Origin: Candidatus Nomurabacteria bacterium
GTDB taxonomy: Bacteria; Patescibacteriota; Saccharimonadia; Saccharimonadales; VXPC01
Direction of reading: 5' to 3'
Length of the DNA stretch: 64,000 bases
Assembly (NCBI GenBank): GCA_020631905.1
Contig: JACKGQ010000001.1
Span: forward strand, 421,854-485,853
This document shows, in pieces, positions 980 to 46,666 of the stretch (its first letter is position 1; every line of letters begins with the position of its first letter). The notes beneath the pieces were generated by a model, which saw only the letters and a program-made list of their open reading frames with translations, searched no databases and was not told the DNA's origin. Position numbers and translations under genes: made by a program.

Positions 980-998
980 ACTAAGCCTCAGCACCGCC

Positions 999-1027
999 AA
1001 AAAGACCCATATATTTGGGTCTTTTTG
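999..1027 (+). terminator. Rho-independent terminator after tsf
   Basis: AAAAAGACCCA (999-1009), loop TATATT, TGGGTCTTTTT (1016-1026). The 11-bp stem has A and T tracts on both sides. Confidence 0.8.
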
Positions 1028-1060
1028 CTATGAAATTAAAAAAGTTCATATGATGCTCGA

Positions 1061-1093
1061 AATTTAATTTAAATTTAATTTAAATTAAATTTA
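1061..1093. repeat. A/T-only quasi-palindromic element, copy A
   Basis: AATTTAATTTAAATTTAATTTAAATTAAATTTA. 1061-1092 matches 24299-24330 at 31 of 32 positions. Confidence 0.9.
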
Positions 1094-1292
1094 TAACCAG
1101 CGCACAAAACACTAATTAAACGTGCGGTTATTGGTAGTGGTTAAGTAACAGTAGGGGAGGTGGTGCGGTCTTTGGAGAGAAGTTACAGTTAACTTTTTAA
1201 AACGCAAAGCTTTCCACCCATTTCTTTTATTTATGTACAGACAAACAATCCCTACCTTTTTCTAGAAAAAGGTAACAAAAAGCTTCTCAGCC

Positions 1293-1326
1293 AGAACTAG
1301 ATCTTAGATCTCGGATCTTAGAGCTA
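1293..1326. repeat. Heptanucleotide tandem array (AGATCTT family), solo intergenic copy
   Basis: AGAACT AGATCTT AGATCTC GGATCTT AGAGCTA. Same unit and orientation as the array at 4178-4210. Confidence 0.85.
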
Positions 1327-1638
1327 ACTCACATACTTAAGCTCAGTAAGCTTGCTAATCTCGGGTTTGGGTTCATAAAGATCCGTTTAGGTTTATCTGA
1401 AAGTTTAAGTCAATCTTATACTTCTGAGGACTACCAGGTTAGCGATAGCTAAACTTTCCGCAAGAACAGATTTAAACTTATAGATAAAACTAGTAGTGAT
1501 CTTCATTCTACCCAAGAGCTTTTGTAATACTTTTGGCGGGCAAAAGTATTAAAGATACATTTTCGCTTTACATCCGCTAGCTAGCGGAAAGCTCATCAGT
1601 TACAGTTTAACTGTAATAATGTATTCACAAGGAGAACA

Positions 1639-1683
1639 CTGCCACCGGCTCATTCGCTATTGCTAGCGAAGAGCCGGTGGCAG
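1639..1683 (-). terminator. Long GC-rich hairpin downstream of the GC-rich minus-strand gene
   Basis: CTGCCACCGGCTC (1639-1651) pairs perfectly with GAGCCGGTGGCAG (1671-1683). An inner TTCGCTA/TAGCGAA pairing extends the stem. It lies 6 nt after the stop at 1690. The downstream U-tract on the minus strand is only moderate. Confidence 0.6.
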
Positions 1684-1689
1684 GTGCAG

Positions 1690-2202
1690 TCACGAGGCGG
1701 TGATGTCGCCTCGACTGTTGTGGCTGCGGTCGAACAGGTTGGCCACGTTCGAGCCGTATTGGGCCCGCAGCTGGTCCCGCAGGTCGGTGTCGTTTGTCGG
1801 ACGGATCTTGCGTAGCGCAGCACTGTTTACCTGGCCGTTCATCAGCTGCCGGCGACGCTCGCTGAGCACCTGCCAGAGCTGCCGCCCGGCGGCGCTGACG
1901 CGCGTCGGCTGGATCACGGTCATACGACCGAAGATCAGCCAGAGCACGCCGGCAATCGCCAGACGCTGCAGTGTCAGCTCGCCGATGTCGGTGGCGCCAG
2001 TCAGAAGCGGACTCCACTCGGGCATGGGCTGGTAGGTCCAGTCTGTGGCGTAGTCGAGCAGCGCCCAGGCGGCCACGAACTTCCACGCTTCGTGGAAGAG
2101 CATCGCCAGCGTGCTGAGCACGCCGAAGATATAGATCATCGCAGTGACGGCAGCCGCCACTGCGATGATCAGGAACTCGGGGCCTGTCAGCAGGTCGAGC
2201 AT
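1690..2202 (-). CDS. Hypothetical membrane protein encoded on a GC-rich island (170 aa)
   Basis: ATG is preceded by AAGGAG (2210-2215) with a 7-nt spacer. Two or three predicted TM helices at the N-terminus and a charged C-terminal half. G+C is visibly far above the flanks. Two other long ORFs overlap it, as expected in GC-rich DNA. Confidence 0.7.
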   Translation of the reverse strand: MLDLLTGPEFLIIAVAAAVTAMIYIFGVLSTLAMLFHEAWKFVAAWALLDYATDWTYQPMPEWSPLLTGATDIGELTLQRLAIAGVLWLIFGRMTVIQPTRVSAAGRQLWQVLSERRRQLMNGQVNSAALRKIRPTNDTDLRDQLRAQYGSNVANLFDRSHNSRGDITAS

Positions 2203-2364
2203 GGTGTTTCTCCTTGTGGTGTGCGTCGACGGGTAGGCAAGACGCCCAACCTCACTAATCGAACAAACATATTATAGCACAAAGTAATAAAAAAGTAAAT
2301 CAGTGCACTAATTTCGATAGGTAAAATGCCATAGCTCTAGACTATGCAAAGCCTTAAACAAACA

Positions 2365-2393
2365 TTGACAAACCGTAAAGCTTATGCTAATAT
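2365..2393 (+). promoter_or_regulatory. Sigma-70-type promoter for the 357-aa orphan gene
   Basis: TTGACA (2365-2370), 17-nt spacer, TAATAT (2388-2393), with TGC immediately upstream (extended -10). Confidence 0.65.
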
Positions 2394-2468
2394 GTATGCA
2401 TACTTATTACATACAAAAAGTATTAAACAGTTAAGCAAAAAATAAAAAGAAATTTTAGGTAAGCAAAA

Positions 2469-3542
2469 ATGAGCGAAACAGCACCACAATCTAACTACGA
2501 ACAAGAACTCGACAAAGCCATTGGAGACATGGCAGGATTCGATCAGCATCGAAGGGCTGGTTTTGCGCCGGGTAGGTTCGATAATAGGGGTTTTGGCAAT
2601 GTCTATGCAGATGCGAGTCAGGACGCCAGCACACTAACATATGGCGACATTACGGGTGGTGAGGGGCAGCCTAAAATTGTAGGAGATTTGTATTTAGCAC
2701 ACACTGACAATGCTGGCTACGGCTATGATCACGACATACTAGTAGACAGAAGTGGTGGGAGTGGCGCAACAGTCGATGAATATGTTGCAAAACACGACGG
2801 CGACGTAACTATCGAGCGGATTGATCGTAACACCGGGCAGACAGTTTATGAATCAAAATTATCCGGCGAGAAGGCGGCCAAAGCTAAAGAAATTTTAACC
2901 CGATTAGCACTACGCTATGCGAACGAAAAAATCGAAGCTTCCAACGACCCTGAGTTAGTTCAAAAATATGTCGACGAAGCATTCGAACATGTTGAAGCCC
3001 AAGTTGAAGATGAACGTAAAGACTTGCGTAGTGGTGACGAAAAACAAATCCGGGCGGACGCACTTTTGTATCCCGAGACTCATCATTTAGCAAAGCTTGA
3101 GGAAAACGACGCCCAGTCATGGGGCCGTGAGATAGCTTATGTGTTAAAAGAGGATCCACTATATATAGAGCGAGCTTTGCCTCAACTCGAGGCGGCTAGC
3201 CCAGAGACCGTCGAACAGCTCAAGGATATGATAAAAAATAAACTACGACTTCAGCGAGCTGCCAAATATACGCTGAGTAGACACAAAGAGTACTCTACAG
3301 CTAGTCAGCTGTATAGCGTGCTCGAGCAGCTTGGGGTTAAAGTTGGTCGTTACGATAGGCTAAGTAACCCTGCACTCGAGTCTCAGATAAACGATCTTGC
3401 TACAAGGTTAAAGACAAACATGAAGGTTAGGCGCGTTCTCGAGGGTACATTTCGTTCAGCTTCGTCTAGAGTAAATTATCGTCGCCGAAATGCCCCAAGC
3501 AATCATCTGGCAAACGATAGCCCCACGCAGCTAGCCGCCTAG
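2469..3542 (+). CDS. Hypothetical protein (357 aa), acidic and helical, no signal peptide
   Basis: Long ORF with its own consensus promoter. I recognise no motif. Confidence 0.75.
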   Translation: MSETAPQSNYEQELDKAIGDMAGFDQHRRAGFAPGRFDNRGFGNVYADASQDASTLTYGDITGGEGQPKIVGDLYLAHTDNAGYGYDHDILVDRSGGSGATVDEYVAKHDGDVTIERIDRNTGQTVYESKLSGEKAAKAKEILTRLALRYANEKIEASNDPELVQKYVDEAFEHVEAQVEDERKDLRSGDEKQIRADALLYPETHHLAKLEENDAQSWGREIAYVLKEDPLYIERALPQLEAASPETVEQLKDMIKNKLRLQRAAKYTLSRHKEYSTASQLYSVLEQLGVKVGRYDRLSNPALESQINDLATRLKTNMKVRRVLEGTFRSASSRVNYRRRNAPSNHLANDSPTQLAA

Positions 3543-3619
3543 CGATCAACCAGATCTTAGCGAATTGCAAAGATTGTTCGTGCTATAATATTAGTCTATT
3601 AAGGAGTTATTTTGGTTTT

Positions 3620-4171
3620 ATGGATGGTCAACAATACGTAGTTTCTGCTAGTAAAAAGTTTAACGAGTCGGTCGAGCATTTCGAAGCCGAGGCCTCGAAA
3701 GTTCGAACTGGTAGAGCTCACCCGAGTATGCTCGACGGCATTATGGTCGAAGCTTACGGTACCGAAATGCCACTGATTCAGTGTGGTAGTATTAGCGTCC
3801 CCGAAAATACATTGCTCCAGATTACTCCATTCGATCCAAATAACATCCAGGCTATTAGTGCGGCAATTCGCAACGATCAACAGCTGGGCCTCAACCCAAG
3901 CGACGATGGTCGAGTTGTACGCGTGCCGGTACCGCCGCTAACTAGTGAGCGTCGTCAACAACTTGTTAAAGTGCTCAACGAAAAGAAGGAAGATGCCTTT
4001 ATTAGTATGCGTACATCACGCCATGACGCCCTAAAAGAAATCAAAGATAATGTGCCAAGCCAAGACGAAGCCAAGCGTCTCGAAACTCAAGTCGACGAAG
4101 CTATGAACAAAGCTAAAAACCAAATCGAAACTGTAGCCAAAACCAAAGAGCAGGAAATCCTTACAGTCTAA
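3620..4171 (+). CDS. frr: Ribosome recycling factor
   Basis: Full-length RRF pattern (KVRTGRAHPSMLDGIMVEAYG...PLTSERRQQLVK...). Confidence 0.93.
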   Translation: MDGQQYVVSASKKFNESVEHFEAEASKVRTGRAHPSMLDGIMVEAYGTEMPLIQCGSISVPENTLLQITPFDPNNIQAISAAIRNDQQLGLNPSDDGRVVRVPVPPLTSERRQQLVKVLNEKKEDAFISMRTSRHDALKEIKDNVPSQDEAKRLETQVDEAMNKAKNQIETVAKTKEQEILTV

Positions 4172-4176
4172 TTTCC

Positions 4177-4210
4177 TAGATCTTGGATCTTAGAGCTCAG
4201 AGCTTAGAGT
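4177..4210. repeat. Left arm: heptamer array and inverted repeat flanking the four-helix-bundle gene
   Basis: AGATCTT GGATCTT AGAGCTC AGAGCTT AGAGT. 4177-4195 is the reverse complement of 4570-4588 with one mismatch. Confidence 0.9.
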
Positions 4211-4567
4211 ATGTCGACCTACGATTATAAAAAACTAGAAGTCTGGCAGCGTTCCATGAAATTTGTAGTAGCAGTATATTCGGTGTGCGAAAAACTACCC
4301 GACTACGAGAAATATTCATTAGCAGATCAGCTTCGAAGAGCTAGCGTATCGATCCCGTCGAATATTGCAGAGGGACAAAAGCGTGCCAATAAAAAGGAAA
4401 CTGTTCAGTTTACTTATGTTGCCATTAGCTCGCTAGCAGAAGTTGAGACGCAGCTGATACTTGCAAGTAGACTTCACGGCGTAAAAACAGATGATTTATT
4501 AACAGAATGTGAGATAATTGGCCGCATGCTCACAGCACTAACAAACTCTTTGAAGAGGATAAAATGA
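4211..4567 (+). CDS. Four-helix-bundle protein (23S rRNA intervening-sequence protein family)
   Basis: Family-typical KKLEVWQ...A..VY......P..EKYSLADQLRRASVSIPSNIAEGQ....KE...F..A..SL.E..TQL pattern. 118 aa. Confidence 0.88.
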   Translation: MSTYDYKKLEVWQRSMKFVVAVYSVCEKLPDYEKYSLADQLRRASVSIPSNIAEGQKRANKKETVQFTYVAISSLAEVETQLILASRLHGVKTDDLLTECEIIGRMLTALTNSLKRIK

Positions 4568-5283
4568 GCCTCCAAGATCCAAGATCTAAGATCAAAGATC
4601 TAATTCCAAAGCATATTGGGATTATCTTAGATGGTAATCGGCGGTGGGCCGAAGAAAACGGTTTACCGACAATGGAAGGCCACCGAAAAGGTGCCGACAA
4701 TATCGAGTTCGTTGCCGAAGCCTTGTTTGATAAAGGTGTCGAGTATGTGTCTTTATTTGTATTTTCTACCGAAAACTGGAAACGGACTACCGAGGAAGTT
4801 GGCTATCTGATGAAGTTATTTGTAAAGCTGTTCAAAAAAGACAGCCAGCGTTTGATTGATCGAGGTTATCGAATTCTGTTTGCCGGACGACGTGATGGCA
4901 AGATTAACAAAGATATAAGTGAGGCAATCGAAGATCTCGAAGACAGTTCTAAAAATGGTAAGAATGGCACACTTGTTTTTTGCTTCAACTACGGCGGCAC
5001 AACCGAGATAGTCGATGCGGTTAAAGGTATTGTTGAGTCTGGCATAAATCCCGAAGATATCGATGAGCAAACATTGTCCGAAAACATGTATCAACCAGAA
5101 GTCCCACCAATCGATCTGCTGGTGCGGACAAGCGGCGAACAAAGAATCAGTGGTTTTCAGCTATGGCGAGCAGCTTATGCAGAACTGTTGTTTATTGATA
5201 AACACTGGCCAGATTTTAGTCCGGCCGATGCTACAATGATTATCGATGAATTTTCGGCGCGTAACCGGCGGTTTGGAGGCTAA
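4564..5283 (+). CDS. uppS: Isoprenyl transferase / undecaprenyl-diphosphate synthase
   Basis: HIGIILDGNRRWA, FSTENWKR and RTSGEQRISGFQLW motifs. The ATG overlaps the upstream stop (ATGA). Confidence 0.92.
   Translation: MSLQDPRSKIKDLIPKHIGIILDGNRRWAEENGLPTMEGHRKGADNIEFVAEALFDKGVEYVSLFVFSTENWKRTTEEVGYLMKLFVKLFKKDSQRLIDRGYRILFAGRRDGKINKDISEAIEDLEDSSKNGKNGTLVFCFNYGGTTEIVDAVKGIVESGINPEDIDEQTLSENMYQPEVPPIDLLVRTSGEQRISGFQLWRAAYAELLFIDKHWPDFSPADATMIIDEFSARNRRFGG
4570..4603. repeat. Right arm: heptamer array in inverse orientation, inside the first codons of uppS
   Basis: CCAAGAT CCAAGAT CTAAGAT CAAAGAT CTAA. It pairs with 4177-4195. Confidence 0.9.
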
Positions 5284-24263: not shown

Positions 24264-24297
24264 TTATAGATAAGATTTCCTGGAGTTGGTACGTGCT

Positions 24298-24331
24298 AAA
24301 TTTAATTTAAATTAAATTTAAATTAAATTTC
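24298..24331. repeat. A/T-only quasi-palindromic element, copy B
   Basis: AAATTTAATTTAAATTAAATTTAAATTAAATTTC. 24299-24330 matches 1061-1092 at 31 of 32 positions. Confidence 0.9.
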
Positions 24332-37164: not shown

Positions 37165-37565
37165 TAGTAATAATTTTTTGAAAGCTAAAGCTTCTGATTG
37201 CATGTAGCAATAAATACCATAGCCATTTTTGTGGGTAGTTTGGTATGATGTTGCGAGTTGGTATAACGCGCACGTGCTCGTGGCCAAAGTAGTGTAAAAA
37301 ATGATTTATGAACAAGCCTGAATGGCTAGAAGACAATTTTCTCTTGCTCAATGTATCGCTTCAGATACACTTCGCTCGACAGAGTTTGCTTCCATCTCAT
37401 TCATCCTAGCCCATAAAACATTCAATACACTACAATGCCCACATGTTTACCAGCGCTAAATATGGCAGAAGATGAAATAATCTTCGGTGGGTCTAACGCC
37501 CTCAAAGCCAAAAGCGCTATAACAAACACGTAAAGGCGCGTCTTTTTATTTTTTGGAGGTTATAA

Positions 37566-37829
37566 ATGAAACTGATTAACATTCGATTCTTCACTAAGAA
37601 CTCAGAACCAAGAACTCAGAACTCTCTGGCAGCAGGAGTTTGCGGTGCGTTTCCGGTAGATCTGAAAACCACGTATGAGGAGCTAGATTGGTTTTTCTTG
37701 GCGAGGAAGCTCCAAGGAGATGTAGATTGGCTACTTCGACTGAGCCCCACAGCCAAAAAAATCAAGCTAGCCCTCAAGCAAACTCAGAGTGCCGGGCTTT
37801 GCCTGGCAGCAGGAGTTTGCGGTGCGTAG
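37566..37829 (+). CDS. Possible 87-aa upstream ORF translationally coupled to pyrG (doubtful)
   Basis: GGAGG (37555-37559) lies 6 nt before the ATG. The stop TAG (37827-37829) overlaps the pyrG GTG (37822). The ORF contains both copies of the 25-bp repeat, read as LAAGVCGA each time. No family recognised. Confidence 0.3.
   Translation: MKLINIRFFTKNSEPRTQNSLAAGVCGAFPVDLKTTYEELDWFFLARKLQGDVDWLLRLSPTAKKIKLALKQTQSAGLCLAAGVCGA
37594..37625. repeat. Heptanucleotide tandem array (variant CNNAGAA unit)
   Basis: CTAAGAA CTCAGAA CCAAGAA CTCAGAA CTCT. It directly abuts direct-repeat copy 1. Confidence 0.8.
37626..37650 (+). repeat. 25-bp direct repeat, copy 1 (decoy RBS and GTG)
   Basis: CTGGCAGCAGGAGTTTGCGGTGCGT is identical to 37803-37827. 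Here the GTG (37645) opens only a 4-codon ORF (M-R-F-R-stop). Confidence 0.9.
37803..37827 (+). repeat. 25-bp direct repeat, copy 2 (carries the pyrG RBS and start)
   Basis: Identical 25-mer. AGGAG at 37811-37815, then a 6-nt spacer, then GTG at 37822. Confidence 0.9.
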
Positions 37830-39429
37830 TTCTCAGAAATACATAATTGTCACTGGCGGGGTAATATCTGGTAACGGCAAAGGCATAACCAGCGCCAGTA
37901 TTGGTGCCTGTCTAAAGGCGCGAGGAGTGAAGGTGAATATGCTGAAATTCGATATGTACCTAAACGTCGATGCGGGTACACTCAAACCAGGCAAACATGG
38001 AGAAGTCTTCGTAACCAAAGATGGTGCCGAAACTGACCTCGACCTTGGTCATTACGAACGTTTCTTAGATACCGAGATGACTCACAAAAGCTCAATTATG
38101 CAGGGGCGAATTTTAAAAGAGATAATCGACAAAGAGCGGTCTGGCGGCTTTAAAGGGGATGATGTACAAGTCTTGCCGCATGTAACTAACGCCATACAAG
38201 ATAAAATTCTCGAAGCTGCCGAAGGCTTTGATGTGCAAATGGTTGAGCTTGGTGGTACGGTTGGAGACTACGAAGGCATGGCGTTTGTCGAAGCGGTACG
38301 TCAGTTTGCCCACAGGGTCGGCCGCGAGAATATCATCTATGTCCACGTCGTTTATTTGCCTTACTTAGAAGTAAGTAACGAAATCAAAACCAAGCCTGCT
38401 CAAAATGCCGCCCGTGACTTGCGGAGTATTGGTATAAACCCAGACTTTTTGGTTGCGCGCTGTGAACACGCCCCGCAATCAAACACCATTTTTAAACTCA
38501 GTTTATTTACAGATATACCCGAAGAACGCATCGTGGTCTTGCAAAACGCCTCGACGGTTTACGAAGTGCCTCTAACGCTCGAAAAGCGAGGTATGGCCAG
38601 TGAGATAGCCCGGAAACTTGGAGTCAAACATCAACCAGATTTGTCTGCCTGGAAAACAGTGGTTAGCTCTGCCAAGAAGCAATATTCCAAGACAGTAAAA
38701 ATCGGCATGGTCGCCAAATATCTAGACAATCTCGATACCTACATGTCAGTTACCGAAGCCCTAAAAGCAGCTGCCTGGAGCGAAAAAGTTAACCTCGAAG
38801 TAATTTGGGTAAATGCCGAAGAGATCGAAAAGCTTAATCAGCGCGAGTTGGCTCTAGAGCTCATGAAATATCATGGTATTTTGGTTCCAGGAGGCTTTGG
38901 TGAGCGGGGTATCGAAGGCATGATTGCCACAGCCAACCAAGCTATCCATGCTAAAATTCCGTATTTTGGTATTTGTCTTGGCTTGCAAGTTGCCACAATC
39001 GCGTTTGCCCGCAATCAAGGTTTAGTACGAGCAAACTCTAAAGAATTCAACCCAAAAGGTGATCAGCTGGTGATTTCGACTATGCCTGGTCAAGAAGGTA
39101 AGGAAATGACTGGCGGCACGATGCGCCTAGGTAACTACCCCTGTGATTTAACCAAAGGCTCGTTAGCCGAGCAGCTATATGGCAAGCCTAAGATCGTCGA
39201 ACGGCATCGGCATCGGTTTGAATTCAACCCAGAATATAAAGACATGCTTGTAGCAGCTGGACTGAAAATAACTGGTATATGCCCAGAAAACGGACTTGCA
39301 GAAATTATTGAGCTTGGCGACCATCCATATTTTATTGGCTGTCAGTACCACCCTGAGTTTTTGTCGCGCCCAACCCGACCACATCCGCTCTTTAGTGGAC
39401 TAATCCGAGCGGCTAAGAAACGCACCTAA
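37822..39429 (+). CDS. pyrG: CTP synthase
   Basis: KYIIVTGGVISGNGKGITSAS N-terminus, GATase domain with GICLGLQ and HRHRFEFN. I prefer the GTG at 37822 because of its RBS. The ORF track starts at the GTG at 37789. Confidence 0.93.
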   Translation: MRSSQKYIIVTGGVISGNGKGITSASIGACLKARGVKVNMLKFDMYLNVDAGTLKPGKHGEVFVTKDGAETDLDLGHYERFLDTEMTHKSSIMQGRILKEIIDKERSGGFKGDDVQVLPHVTNAIQDKILEAAEGFDVQMVELGGTVGDYEGMAFVEAVRQFAHRVGRENIIYVHVVYLPYLEVSNEIKTKPAQNAARDLRSIGINPDFLVARCEHAPQSNTIFKLSLFTDIPEERIVVLQNASTVYEVPLTLEKRGMASEIARKLGVKHQPDLSAWKTVVSSAKKQYSKTVKIGMVAKYLDNLDTYMSVTEALKAAAWSEKVNLEVIWVNAEEIEKLNQRELALELMKYHGILVPGGFGERGIEGMIATANQAIHAKIPYFGICLGLQVATIAFARNQGLVRANSKEFNPKGDQLVISTMPGQEGKEMTGGTMRLGNYPCDLTKGSLAEQLYGKPKIVERHRHRFEFNPEYKDMLVAAGLKITGICPENGLAEIIELGDHPYFIGCQYHPEFLSRPTRPHPLFSGLIRAAKKRT

Positions 39430-44298: not shown

Positions 44299-45567
44299 TT
44301 ATTTTCTTACTAAAACTAATAATTCTCGCGCAACAACTTGGCCTGGCCTGTGGTAGATCAGATCTTGCCGACGAGCATGTTTAAAATCTAGCCGATTATA
44401 GCCGAATTCCTCGAGAGAGTCAAGTAGTGGCAAGTGCTTGAAACTGGAGCTTAGATCTTGGAGCTTAGATCTTGGAGCACTTACTGCCCAGGCAGGGACA
44501 GCTATGCACATCCGAGTGCCAGATCTGGTTTGGGAGGCTAAGTTGCGCAAGAATTGGCTAAGCAGGTGATTTACATTGGTTATGTTTTGTTCGAGCTGTT
44601 CCAGCTCGGGCAGCTTAAAGTAGGCTTCGCCAAGAAATGTCTCGCAGGCAACAGCGCCGATCTCTGGTTTGGCTGAAACCGGTTGGTTAACATCTTTTAA
44701 GAAATCTAGCCAGTTAGCCGAACAGGCATCAGCAGGTTCGTAAGTTGTGTGGCCACCTTCAGGTACAATCGATGATGTTAACTTTTTGTTGGCCCAGATG
44801 CCATTGTCGGCGGCCATCTTAACCATTCGCGGCTCAAGGTCGGTGTTCGCCCTATAGGCTAGACCCATTAAGTACGCTTCGATGTTTATGACGCCAGTAC
44901 CACAAAAAGGATCAAGGAGGTATTCGTCGGATAAATCTTCGAGTTTAGGGCAGGCAAGATTGATGATGATTTGGGCTAGTTTGGGTGGCAACATGCCGAC
45001 TTTTGCGTCGCGGGCTGGACGGGAACGATCGCGGTAAGTATAGGCGTCGAGGTCTTGGATAGCGACAGTTTGGGCAATGATTGTCTGATTATCCCGCCGA
45101 ACAAGACAAAGCTCCCAGCCTTTCGAGTGGAGTTTGTTGTGCAGAACCTGAGCGTCGTTTAATGTTTGGCTATAGGTTGGGACAAGCCGGACGTTTCGTC
45201 CGGTACGTTTAACTGCTTTTTTGATGTTTAGGCCAAGTTTTTCGATCTGTTTCTGGCCAAAATCTAGACCGTAAACAGATACACCAATCGATAATTTTCC
45301 TTCGGGCCACTGCTGCACATGTTCGACGCAGGCAACAGCCAAGAACTTTTCTATATCGGCTAATTTAGTGGAGTCGAGAACAGTTAAGACTTTGGCAAGT
45401 TTAGTACTACCACCGAGTCGATAAAATGGAACTTGTCCGGACTCGATGTCGAGCAGGGCAATTTGACCGAATGTATCAGCGATCGCCGCGTCTCCAAAAA
45501 GGCTCTCGAGCTCGGCGAGGCTAAGTTTTGGTTGTCGACCCAAAAATATAATTGTTTGGTAGTTCAC
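44299..45567 (-). CDS. Class I SAM-dependent methyltransferase, Trm11/UPF0020-like (putative RNA guanine-N2 MTase)
   Basis: MLPPKLAQIIINLA followed by LDPFCGTGV (SAM motif I). I prefer the GTG at 45567, which gives MNYQTIIFLGRQPKLSLAELE. The ORF track extends to a TTG at 45642. Confidence 0.7.
   Translation of the reverse strand: MNYQTIIFLGRQPKLSLAELESLFGDAAIADTFGQIALLDIESGQVPFYRLGGSTKLAKVLTVLDSTKLADIEKFLAVACVEHVQQWPEGKLSIGVSVYGLDFGQKQIEKLGLNIKKAVKRTGRNVRLVPTYSQTLNDAQVLHNKLHSKGWELCLVRRDNQTIIAQTVAIQDLDAYTYRDRSRPARDAKVGMLPPKLAQIIINLACPKLEDLSDEYLLDPFCGTGVINIEAYLMGLAYRANTDLEPRMVKMAADNGIWANKKLTSSIVPEGGHTTYEPADACSANWLDFLKDVNQPVSAKPEIGAVACETFLGEAYFKLPELEQLEQNITNVNHLLSQFLRNLASQTRSGTRMCIAVPAWAVSAPRSKLQDLSSSFKHLPLLDSLEEFGYNRLDFKHARRQDLIYHRPGQVVARELLVLVRK
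44446..44480. repeat. Heptamer array inside the methyltransferase CDS (perfect 14-bp unit repeated twice)
   Basis: GGAGCTT AGATCTT GGAGCTT AGATCTT GGAGCAC. Confidence 0.9.
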
Positions 45568-45610
45568 TTCAAATAAGTATAATTGACTGCAGTCGAATAA
45601 GGAATCAAAC

Positions 45611-46666
45611 TTGAAAAGCTCCAGAATTAAACTATTTATCAACCTGTTGACCTTTGTTGCACTTGGAGCATTGATATTTTTCTCGAGAGCTCAAATTAGC
45701 GATGCCCTACATCAACTAAAAGAACTGAGTGTTGGCTTTTTGGTGCTACTCGTGCCGACTCAGCTGGTTAGCTACTACGCAATCGCCCAACTATACTATT
45801 CTTACTTTAAGGCCACCAATACGCTGGAAAAACTAACTCTTAAAGAAATGTATTGGATTAGTTTAGAGCTAAACTTTGTGAACTGTGCATTTCCGAGCGG
45901 TGGCTTGAGCGGCTTCTCGTTTATGGGTTTACGTCTGCAACCCTATGGCATACCGGTGGCGGCGACCACACTCTCGCAGATAATTCGTTATTTTATGACT
46001 TTTATAAGTTTCTTGGTGCTATTAGCCGCAGGCACGCTTTTTTTGGCTTTTGGTAACCATGTAAACGGTATTGTCTTGTTGGTAAGTAGCGGAGTCTTTT
46101 TTGTGACGGTAACCGGCACCTTGATTGTCGTCTATATTATTAGTAGCGAACATCGGATTAAGTCGTTCATGCTGTCTTTACCAAAGACAATCAACTGGAT
46201 TCTACGGAAAGTTGGTCGGAGGTCTGGGTCGTACTCGATTAATCTTAATAGGATTGAGCGAGTTTTTTCGGAGTTACATAGAGATTACTTACTACTAAAA
46301 AAGGACCCAAGCATACTCAAGCGACCATTCTTGTTTGGGCTAATGACAAACGCATGCGAGGTCCTGACAGTTTACTGGGTATTCTTAGCGTTCGGTTCGC
46401 CTGTAAATCCTGGAGCAGTAATTTTGGCTTATGCAGTGGCCAACATGGCATCGGTGATTTCAATTTTGCCGGGAGCTGTTGGCATGTATGAGTCGCTAAT
46501 GGTTTATGTGGCAGCAGCGGCTGGTTTGTCGCGGGGGTTATCGATCTCGGCAACTTTAGTATACCGAGTGTTTATGCTGTTAATTTTCGTACCTTTTGGA
46601 GCAGTTCTTTATCAAATGTCAGCAAATCGACGCAAAACGCAAAATACCCATACTCTAGATGGATAA
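45611..46666 (+). CDS. Polytopic membrane protein, LPG-synthase-TM / UPF0104 (flippase-like) family
   Basis: Eight or so TM helices. The N-terminal pattern (K.........L.....L..F......I...L) is typical of the family. TTG start with an AAGGA RBS. Confidence 0.6.
   Translation: MKSSRIKLFINLLTFVALGALIFFSRAQISDALHQLKELSVGFLVLLVPTQLVSYYAIAQLYYSYFKATNTLEKLTLKEMYWISLELNFVNCAFPSGGLSGFSFMGLRLQPYGIPVAATTLSQIIRYFMTFISFLVLLAAGTLFLAFGNHVNGIVLLVSSGVFFVTVTGTLIVVYIISSEHRIKSFMLSLPKTINWILRKVGRRSGSYSINLNRIERVFSELHRDYLLLKKDPSILKRPFLFGLMTNACEVLTVYWVFLAFGSPVNPGAVILAYAVANMASVISILPGAVGMYESLMVYVAAAAGLSRGLSISATLVYRVFMLLIFVPFGAVLYQMSANRRKTQNTHTLDG

Follow-up and report, generated by a model that had tools for sequence, protein, structure and literature searches.

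The stretch of DNA analysed here, 64,000 nt of contig JACKGQ010000001.1 from assembly GCA_020631905.1 (positions 421,854 to 485,853 of the forward strand; hereafter the window), is deposited as Candidatus Nomurabacteria bacterium, and its source genome is a Candidatus Saccharibacteria. At the locus of interest, rpsB and tsf are followed by an accessory insertion of 2.6 kb and then by frr, an open reading frame (ORF) of 118 aa, uppS, and rseP. The window was identical over 6.4 kb to contig JAGQMU010000049 of GCA_020428525.1. The 118-aa ORF matched PF05635 at E = 4.9e-34 and TIGR02436 at E = 7.5e-35, the families of the 23S rRNA intervening sequence protein (IVP, also termed S23p), as well as PDB 2GSC, the crystallized Xanthomonas protein XCC0516, at E = 3e-21. 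On either side of it lies an array of imperfect tandem heptanucleotides. A first-pass annotation made from the sequence alone had reported five such arrays in the window, here numbered i to v (Table 1).

Array ii starts 5 nt past the stop codon of frr, and its end lies 1 nt short of the IVP ATG, while array iii starts 3 nt past the IVP stop, which itself overlaps the uppS ATG (ATGA), and encodes residues 3-13 of UppS (LQDPRSKIKDL). The two arrays (4177-4209 and 4570-4602) constitute an inverted repeat of 33 nt that is 82% complementary, its halves lying 360 nt apart. They are two arms bracketing the IVP ORF exactly and not independent copies, and the earlier description of five equivalent dispersed copies was wrong in this respect. 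In the minimum-free-energy structure predicted for 4165-4615 the arms are paired with each other, and their duplex energy of -35.9 kcal/mol compared with an average of -11.7 for shuffled arms (z = -7.5; 0/300 shuffles as good). The resulting cassette comprises a G/T-rich array, the S23p/IVP ORF, and a reverse-complement array, inserted as a unit and co-oriented with frr and uppS. The window holds one full cassette, and neither an IVP pseudogene nor a second IVP gene was found in it by tblastn with 120 homologues or by a hidden Markov model (HMM) scan of ORFs of at least 25 aa. No promoter was identified between frr and the IVP gene, the promoter and terminator scan around the cassette being at chance level; Rfam families and tRNAs gave no matches in the window, and PADLOC defence-system models matched neither the IVP nor the two accessory ORFs.

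The heptamer arrays are real and lie far beyond chance, because the pattern scores of arrays i-iv exceeded those of Markov simulations, shuffled sequence gave no matches, and the similarity of arrays ii and iv reported earlier (23 of 28 aligned positions identical) was reproduced. All five were recovered in the 64 kb at the positions first given for them or a few bases off, and Tandem Repeats Finder detected a period of 7 or 14 at 1298-1322, 4571-4603, 37593-37624, and 44445-44478. Scoring each position of both strands against (RGAKCTH)x4 gave 28/28 at 1299, 4178, and 44446, 27/28 at 4574 on the minus strand, and 23/28 for array v at 37597; no sixth array was found at that score level anywhere in the 64 kb, and the best score in third-order Markov simulations of the window (n = 200) was 24/28. 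A three-unit pattern with at most one mismatch had 11 matches, every one inside arrays i-iv, compared with none in 100 dinucleotide-preserving shuffles, so that the control proposed in the first-pass annotation, run within the window, came out in its favour. A CRISPR array was ruled out, the units being contiguous 7-mers without spacers.

Table 1. Positions of the heptamer arrays, the cassette gene, and its host genes within the window.
Feature	Position	Strand	Description
frr (ribosome recycling factor), upstream host gene	3620-4171	+	ORF; PF01765 in identical contig L001
Left arm (array ii)	4177-4209	+	AGATCTT GGATCTT AGAGCTC AGAGCTT AGAG, G/T-rich orientation; pairs with right arm in minimum-free-energy fold
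IVP (S23p, "23S rRNA intervening sequence protein") gene	4211-4567	+	118-aa four-helix-bundle protein
Right arm (array iii)	4570-4603	-	plus strand CTCCAAGATCCAAGATCTAAGATCAAAGATCTAA, the reverse complement of the unit family
uppS, downstream host gene	4564-5283	+	PF01255 match from residue 21
Solo array i	1293-1326	+	AGATCTT AGATCTC GGATCTT AGAGCTA; perfect units 1299-1326, degenerate unit 1293-1298
Variant solo array v	37593-37625	-	plus strand ACTAAGA ACTCAGA ACCAAGA ACTCAGA AC; minus-strand unit AGTTCTK, one base from AGATCTT
Solo array iv	44446-44480	+	(GGAGCTTAGATCTT) x 2.4; within minus-strand Trm11-like methyltransferase ORF 44299-45642

Comparison with related genomes revealed the same cassette in full, empty, and decayed states at a single site. 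The arrangement frr-[array]-IVP-[array]-uppS was conserved in five further Saccharibacteria lineages (L006, L210, L212, L214, and L216), making six with the window; the IVPs of these relatives had pairwise identities of 58-75%, and in all five lineages the gene was flanked on either side by heptamer arrays with a GATCT or GAGCT core. Arm duplexes across the cassette lineages ranged from -25 to -37 kcal/mol (z -4.3 to -7.5), with 0/300 shuffles as good in any of them. The closest frr/uppS relatives of the window, L249 and L250 (60-64% identity), contained neither cassette nor arrays, and at their empty site frr and uppS are separated by a 15-nt spacer and UppS has a short N-terminus of the ordinary kind, the N-terminal extension encoded by array iii being missing from the UppS of these empty-site relatives. 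A third state was found in L251 (2347-2545; ENA ERZ25039524 contig_57368), where both arms and the UppS extension are kept and the IVP is down to a remnant of about 120 nt; this locus, a decayed cassette at the frr-uppS site, is a natural "empty hairpin" derivative. The empty, full, and decayed sites together show that the arms and the ORF behave as a single unit of insertion, and that a full cassette can give rise to a hairpin without IVP. Mean identity among the six full cassettes was 64% for IVP, 60% for frr, and 52% for uppS, indicating that the constraint on IVP is comparable with that on essential genes. Cassette-bearing lineages were mostly 45-55% identical to the window in frr/uppS (63% for frr of L216) and 61-65% identical in IVP. 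The patchy distribution of the cassette seems to fit lateral gain and loss alike. The arms did not differ among five independent samples of the species, nor among four from a relative, all near-identical strains and hence a weak test, so that the between-sample comparison proposed in the first-pass annotation revealed no difference.

The association of IVP genes with heptamer arrays extended well beyond the Saccharibacteria. In 80 metagenome loci with genes for IVP relatives (40-53% identity), the maximum lag-7 self-similarity in a 28-nt window was determined within 130-nt flanks and compared with random positions of the same loci as background. It averaged 0.70 in left and 0.74 in right flanks against 0.45 in the background (Mann-Whitney p = 1e-21 and 1e-28, respectively), and scores of at least 0.8 occurred in 37% of left flanks, 45% of right flanks, and 3% of background positions; lags 4-6 and 9-11 gave no signal in these flanks. 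Stringent arrays were present at 48-54% of IVP gene ends compared with 2.6% of background windows, an approximately 18-fold enrichment, and their median length of 30-33 nt corresponded to 4.3-4.7 units. The unit differed in nearly every locus (GTGGCTA, GGTTAAA, CAGTGGT, TTAGGGA, and AGTATGC among others), and the downstream array was the reverse complement of the upstream array in each IVP locus printed. Stem scores of at least 14 were reached by 54% of same-locus partner flanks versus 1.7% of non-partner flanks. Strand polarity was likewise marked, with a G+T-rich upstream arm in 26 of 34 loci and an A+C-rich downstream arm in 31 of 38. Neighbouring genes were co-oriented with IVP upstream (56/68) and downstream (47/59), with gaps of about 70 nt. 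No rRNA setting was detected in the 20 IVP loci scanned, and two of 60 lay between tRNA-Met and tRNA-Glu. In the latter (L160 187-907 and L180 1230-1851), a heptamer-armed IVP cassette sits between co-oriented tRNA genes as an intervening cassette in a tRNA operon. The same flank signal was replicated in an independent set of 26 loci on IMG/VR viral contigs. PF05635 genes are typically bracketed by inverted tandem-heptamer arrays, and it is very probable that the arrays of the window follow this family-wide rule, being the arms of an S23p/IVP cassette and its satellites. A figure legend of a large clustering study lists "23S rRNA IVP" among proteins with novel CRISPR-array associations (PMC10910872), and the heptamer arrays flanking IVP genes may have been scored as CRISPR-like there.

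Arrays i, iv, and v occur outside the cassette and are lineage-specific additions at the nucleic-acid level. Array i matched the left arm at 83% identity, and a 24-nt stretch of it was 92% complementary to the right arm. It sits, as had been noted, in the tsf-frr insertion (980-3619), which L006, L249, and L250 are without, and no IVP remnant lies close by. Array iv encodes an extra loop (APRSKLQDLSS) in the methyltransferase, a 9-residue insertion in a variable loop relative to 16 homologous methyltransferases, and its 14-mer is the left-arm motif of the orthologous cassettes of L214 and L216. A protein-level repeat was ruled out by this insertion; arrays iii and iv are read in a common frame because only one array frame is open. 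Together with the UppS extension that cassette-less relatives do not share, array iv upheld the proposal of a DNA- or RNA-level element instead of protein-level selection. A 7-nt inverted repeat (AAGTGCT/AGCACTT; 44431-44437 and 44476-44482) flanks array iv, its distal copy overlapping the conserved methyltransferase FKHL codons, and could be due to chance or be an insertion trace. Array v had been placed in the pyrG leader and is indeed upstream of pyrG, although not in a plain leader, as it lies in an 87-codon ORF (37566-37829).

The same region (context 37540-37850) contains a perfect 25-nt direct repeat, CTGGCAGCAGGAGTTTGCGGTGCGT, at 37626-37650 and 37803-37827, 177 nt apart. Its first copy directly follows array v and would start a 4-codon ORF, its second copy holds the pyrG ribosome-binding site (GGAG) and GTG start (37822), and both are covered by the 87-codon ORF; the pyrG leader folds with z = -3.9.

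The wider set of IVP loci also showed that units are shared within genomes. Among arrays more than 300 nt from a cassette, the unit was within one base of that of the locus' own arms in 22 of 41 cases, compared with 4.3% for the arms of other loci. Scanning one genome per GTDB species with (RGAKCTN)x4 identified at least 120 loci, and the matches listed included Acidobacteriota, Verrucomicrobiota, Planctomycetota, Bacteroidota, Cyanobacteria, Gammaproteobacteria, Streptomyces, and several lineages of the candidate phyla radiation. The 120 loci listed contained 290 heptamer arrays with 49 inverted pairs, mostly with short loops and without an ORF.

Intervening sequences (IVSs) of the S23p type occur in helix 45 of Coxiella burnetii 23S rRNA and also in Leptospira, Brucella, and Haemophilus, the positions used being 23S helices 9, 25, or 45. 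The Coxiella 23S rRNA IVS is the closest experimentally studied relative of the window cassette. Its S23p ORF has GACAGAT heptamers, three or four in tandem, immediately ahead of the ATG, and its 28-bp terminal stem is cut by RNase III at the first repeat (PMC4990558). Both elements have a sense-orientation PF05635/S23p ORF in the loop, complementary termini forming a stem of about 28-33 bp around it (also in the five orthologues), tandem heptamers directly upstream of the ATG, and a reliance on the host transcript. In contrast to the Coxiella element, the window cassette lies between the protein-coding frr and uppS and not in rRNA, no Rfam match being obtained in the window or in 20 related loci; its right arm is translated within UppS; and its IVP matches frr in conservation, while the ORF of Coxiella is in decay and not translated. 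As it lacks the 23S rRNA location and shares the structural characteristics, the element is classed as an S23p cassette of the IVS-like kind, located in an mRNA operon, with arms built of heptamers and with satellite arrays.

Dispersed families of heptamers in four to five units, function not established, include the cyanobacterial short tandemly repeated repetitive (STRR) sequences, Xanthomonas GGGAATC, Nostoc GGGGAYT, and Beggiatoaceae TAACTGA (PMC4692102; PMC4679880; bioRxiv 10.1101/2022.06.06.494920), and Geobacter metallireducens GGGACCG x4 occupies 49 sites, genic as well as intergenic (PMC2700814). The window resembled these families in having a 7-nt unit of genome-specific consensus, typically in four to five copies (at least three to four in tandem by Tandem Repeats Finder and the pattern scan), and in its arrays at five dispersed sites in 64 kb with the unit RGAKCTY or a one-base variant; STRR-type arrays are mostly intergenic, also genic, and occasionally form inverted pairs. 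It differed from them in a unit with a palindromic core (GATC/AGCT) that forms no G-quadruplexes and in a host with a reduced genome of 0.77 Mb. Repeats in the STRR-type reports are treated as free-standing regulatory or G-quadruplex elements without a link to S23p/IVP, although one tabulated four-unit array of Xanthomonas campestris, of the GGGAATC type, overlaps the start of XCC0516 at a distance of 6 nt from bccP (PMC4692102 supplement).

Two further systems were less similar. The IVP shares a distantly related four-helix-bundle fold with Avd (bAvd), the accessory protein of diversity-generating retroelements (DGRs), matching PF22296 (bAvd) at E = 7.6e-6; unlike Avd, it scored 29.4 bits against NF033474, for which the NCBIfam cut-off is 80, and it therefore fails as an Avd equivalog. 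The neighbours of the cassette are frr, uppS, and rseP, unlike those of a DGR, and to our knowledge heptamer arms are not a described DGR feature. The cassette also has imperfect inverted repeats with a small promoter-less gene and a structure conserved over sequence, as in integron attC sites and in repetitive extragenic palindromic (REP) and miniature inverted-repeat transposable elements (MITEs). Integron attC sites are single, uninterrupted hairpins, one downstream of each cassette, and need an integrase. The window cassette, on the other hand, has arms on both sides of its ORF, built of tandem heptamers, and no integrase nearby.

The best explanation, with a probability of roughly 0.6, is that all five arrays belong to one genome-specific tandem heptanucleotide family with the unit RGAKCTY and that the core of this family in the window is an IVS-type gene cassette. 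In a read-through transcript of frr, IVP, and uppS, the arms would form an imperfect stem, about 33 bp long, that is closed by the whole IVP ORF as a loop. The IVP and uppS starts would both be located at the top of the stem, with Shine-Dalgarno-like GGAG/AGAG units in the left arm and CUCC in the right arm, and the ATGA overlap would couple uppS translation to that of IVP. By analogy with S23p-bearing 23S rRNA IVSs, the stem is probably an RNase III substrate and/or a translational gate. Tandem heptamers would let the arms pair in several registers, and slippage with selection for complementarity would maintain them; arrays i, iv, and v may be partnerless offshoots, probably copied from, or homogenized with, the cassette arms. 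On this analogy, the arms are tentatively proposed to act, as an RNA stem, in processing or in the control of translation, with a likelihood somewhat short of even.

Several observations weigh against the IVS-type cassette and its RNA-stem mechanism. Within the (RGAKCTN)x4 scan, an IVP gene stood beside the array in just two of the 120 loci listed, L041 (Saccharibacteria) and L084 (Verrucomicrobiales), by an IVP HMM derived from close relatives, which may have overlooked distant members. Most heptamer arrays are not adjacent to an IVP gene, and the proposition that every such array adjoins one was rejected on this count. No convincing partner arm was found within 600 nt of arrays i, iv, or v, the best local inverted match of array v being 17/24, over the pyrG ribosome-binding site. 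An rnc signature was not found in a scan covering the 64-kb window, and RNase III was not located for the organism. The stems bore no RNA-strand signature, since mismatches in the 72 best stems comprised 40 G·U, 31 A·C (a difference that was not significant), and 78 of transversion type, and 6/6 mismatches in the window arms were non-wobble. The right arm lies within the uppS coding sequence, and stem cleavage would separate the uppS start from its body. In the Bacteroidota-like IMG/VR contigs L235, L237, L244, and L245, a promoter-like TAnnTTTG motif of the typical Bacteroidota kind lies about 20-40 nt upstream of the IVP start, between left arm and ATG; the left arm would be missing from a transcript that starts there, which would speak against a purely RNA-stem role in those hosts. 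Ongoing slippage was not supported either, as arm copy number was invariant across the five species samples. Given the neutral G·U test, the coding right arm, and the promoter-like motif on viral contigs, a DNA-level role as mobile termini or a protein-binding role is a possible alternative.

A DNA-level mobile element was considered unlikely. In this reading, an autonomous IVP cassette would have the arrays as its terminal inverted repeats, with solo arrays and IVP-less "empty hairpins" as non-autonomous, MITE-like derivatives, footprints, or landing sites, and the arms would act in recombination as a DNA hairpin or cruciform and not as RNA. Such an element would account for the patchy occurrence of the cassette, in that the frr and uppS of the window are closest to those of cassette-less L249 and L250 and yet its IVP is 61-65% identical to those of distant cassette lineages, and for the empty, full, and decayed states of a single site. 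The genome-specific unit common to arms and other arrays, the 49 mostly short-looped inverted pairs without an ORF, the IVP cassettes on viral contigs, and the lack of a G·U excess were also consistent with it. On the other side, the identical site in six lineages and an IVP about as conserved as frr are explained equally well by vertical inheritance with losses, and the arrays were unchanged in five samples. Inspection of ORFs and profiles revealed no transposase or integrase in or beside the cassette, and we know of no mobility function of PF05635. A by-eye check of the window cassette alone demonstrated no target-site duplication, showing a weak ATT(T)CC match. The REP/MITE reading of the first-pass annotation was not supported for the same reasons, the solo arrays having no partner arm and no full-length multi-copy units being demonstrated. 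Among its candidates, the one that came closest was "footprint or target of the IVS-like cassette"; arrays ii and iii are the terminal inverted repeats of that cassette.

It is doubtful that the arrays are putative protein-binding sites with one heptamer per subunit of a multimer, either a pentameric IVP or a cold-shock-type oligonucleotide-binding-fold protein, with a regulatory or autoregulatory role on DNA or RNA. Array lengths cluster at four to five units here and likewise in Xanthomonas and Geobacter (PMC4692102; PMC2700814), the IVP homologue 2GSC is a homopentameric toroid (PMC4990558), and IVP is distantly related to the nucleic-acid-handling DGR factor Avd. A heptamer-binding partner has been postulated in Nostoc (bioRxiv 10.1101/2022.06.06.494920), and CspB binds one heptamer per monomer according to a work cited in PMC4679880. 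Against this, the SIPSNIAEG..R motif is near-invariant in IVP whereas the heptamer units wholly differ between genomes, making sequence-specific recognition by a conserved IVP surface unlikely, and L084 shares the GGATCTT unit with the window while their IVPs are 34% identical. The latter pair also led to the rejection of co-transfer of the arm unit with IVP, and the unit match of L084 was an artefact of the search pattern. A broader speculation of low probability is the following: S23p/IVP cassettes might be the autonomous core of bacterial dispersed heptanucleotide families (STRR, Xanthomonas, Geobacter, Beggiatoa, and others) and the pentameric IVP their long-postulated trans-acting partner, about one heptamer per subunit explaining the four to five units, with arms that seed or homogenize solo arrays and "empty hairpins" and with the 23S rRNA IVS as an rRNA-resident minority.

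Neutral simple-sequence repeats (SSRs), with polymerase slippage favouring 7-nt units and incidental proximity to IVP, are a highly improbable explanation, and for arrays ii and iii one that is already largely refuted. In many bacteria no class of long SSR is more over-represented than that of heptanucleotides, with slippage as the proposed cause (Mrazek et al., 2007, as cited in PMC4679880 and PMC4692102), and long pure arrays are common across phyla, but slippage leaves unexplained the reverse-complement flank pairing (54% vs 1.7%), the enrichment at IVP gene ends (48-54% vs 2.6%), the strand polarity, and the retention of arms across lineages with housekeeping proteins about 50% identical, and no length polymorphism was seen in the samples compared.

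A symbiont genome of only 0.77 Mb still keeps the cassette, with a protein as conserved as the ribosome recycling factor. STRR elements have been known since 1990, and the over-representation of heptanucleotides and the role of S23p/IVS proteins are both decades-old puzzles without a mechanism. In the window and about 106 related loci the two are physically coupled, as the arm units of PF05635 cassettes match other heptamer arrays of the same genome, and in the loci checked the cassettes sit in protein-coding or tRNA operons and not in rRNA. Dispersed heptamer families and S23p-bearing IVSs were already known. The bracketing of IVP genes by a genome's own inverted heptamer arrays in mRNA operons is apparently new: no statement of a general IVP-heptamer link, or of cassettes mainly in protein-coding operons, was found in the searchable literature, in a search that was incomplete, so that a prior description is possible. 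The pairing of arrays ii and iii, the family-wide PF05635 rule, and the tie to described dispersed heptanucleotide repeats (PMC4692102; PMC4679880; PMC2700814) go beyond the first-pass annotation. For genome annotation, the odd N-terminal extension of UppS and the in-frame loop of the Trm11-like methyltransferase represent repeat-derived sequence.

Other features of the window were observed in and outside the tsf-frr insertion. The insertion combines a block of 64% GC (1621-2210) with adjoining sequence of 35% GC and contains a near-perfect 18-bp palindrome at 2134-2170; its ORFs at 1690-2202 (minus strand) and 2469-3542 (plus strand) had no Pfam or PADLOC match. A terminator hairpin follows tsf at 998-1027. 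A second dispersed repeat family, an AT-only palindromic tandem of (AAATTTAATTT)x3, was identified at 1060-1093 and 24297-24330, 23 kb apart.

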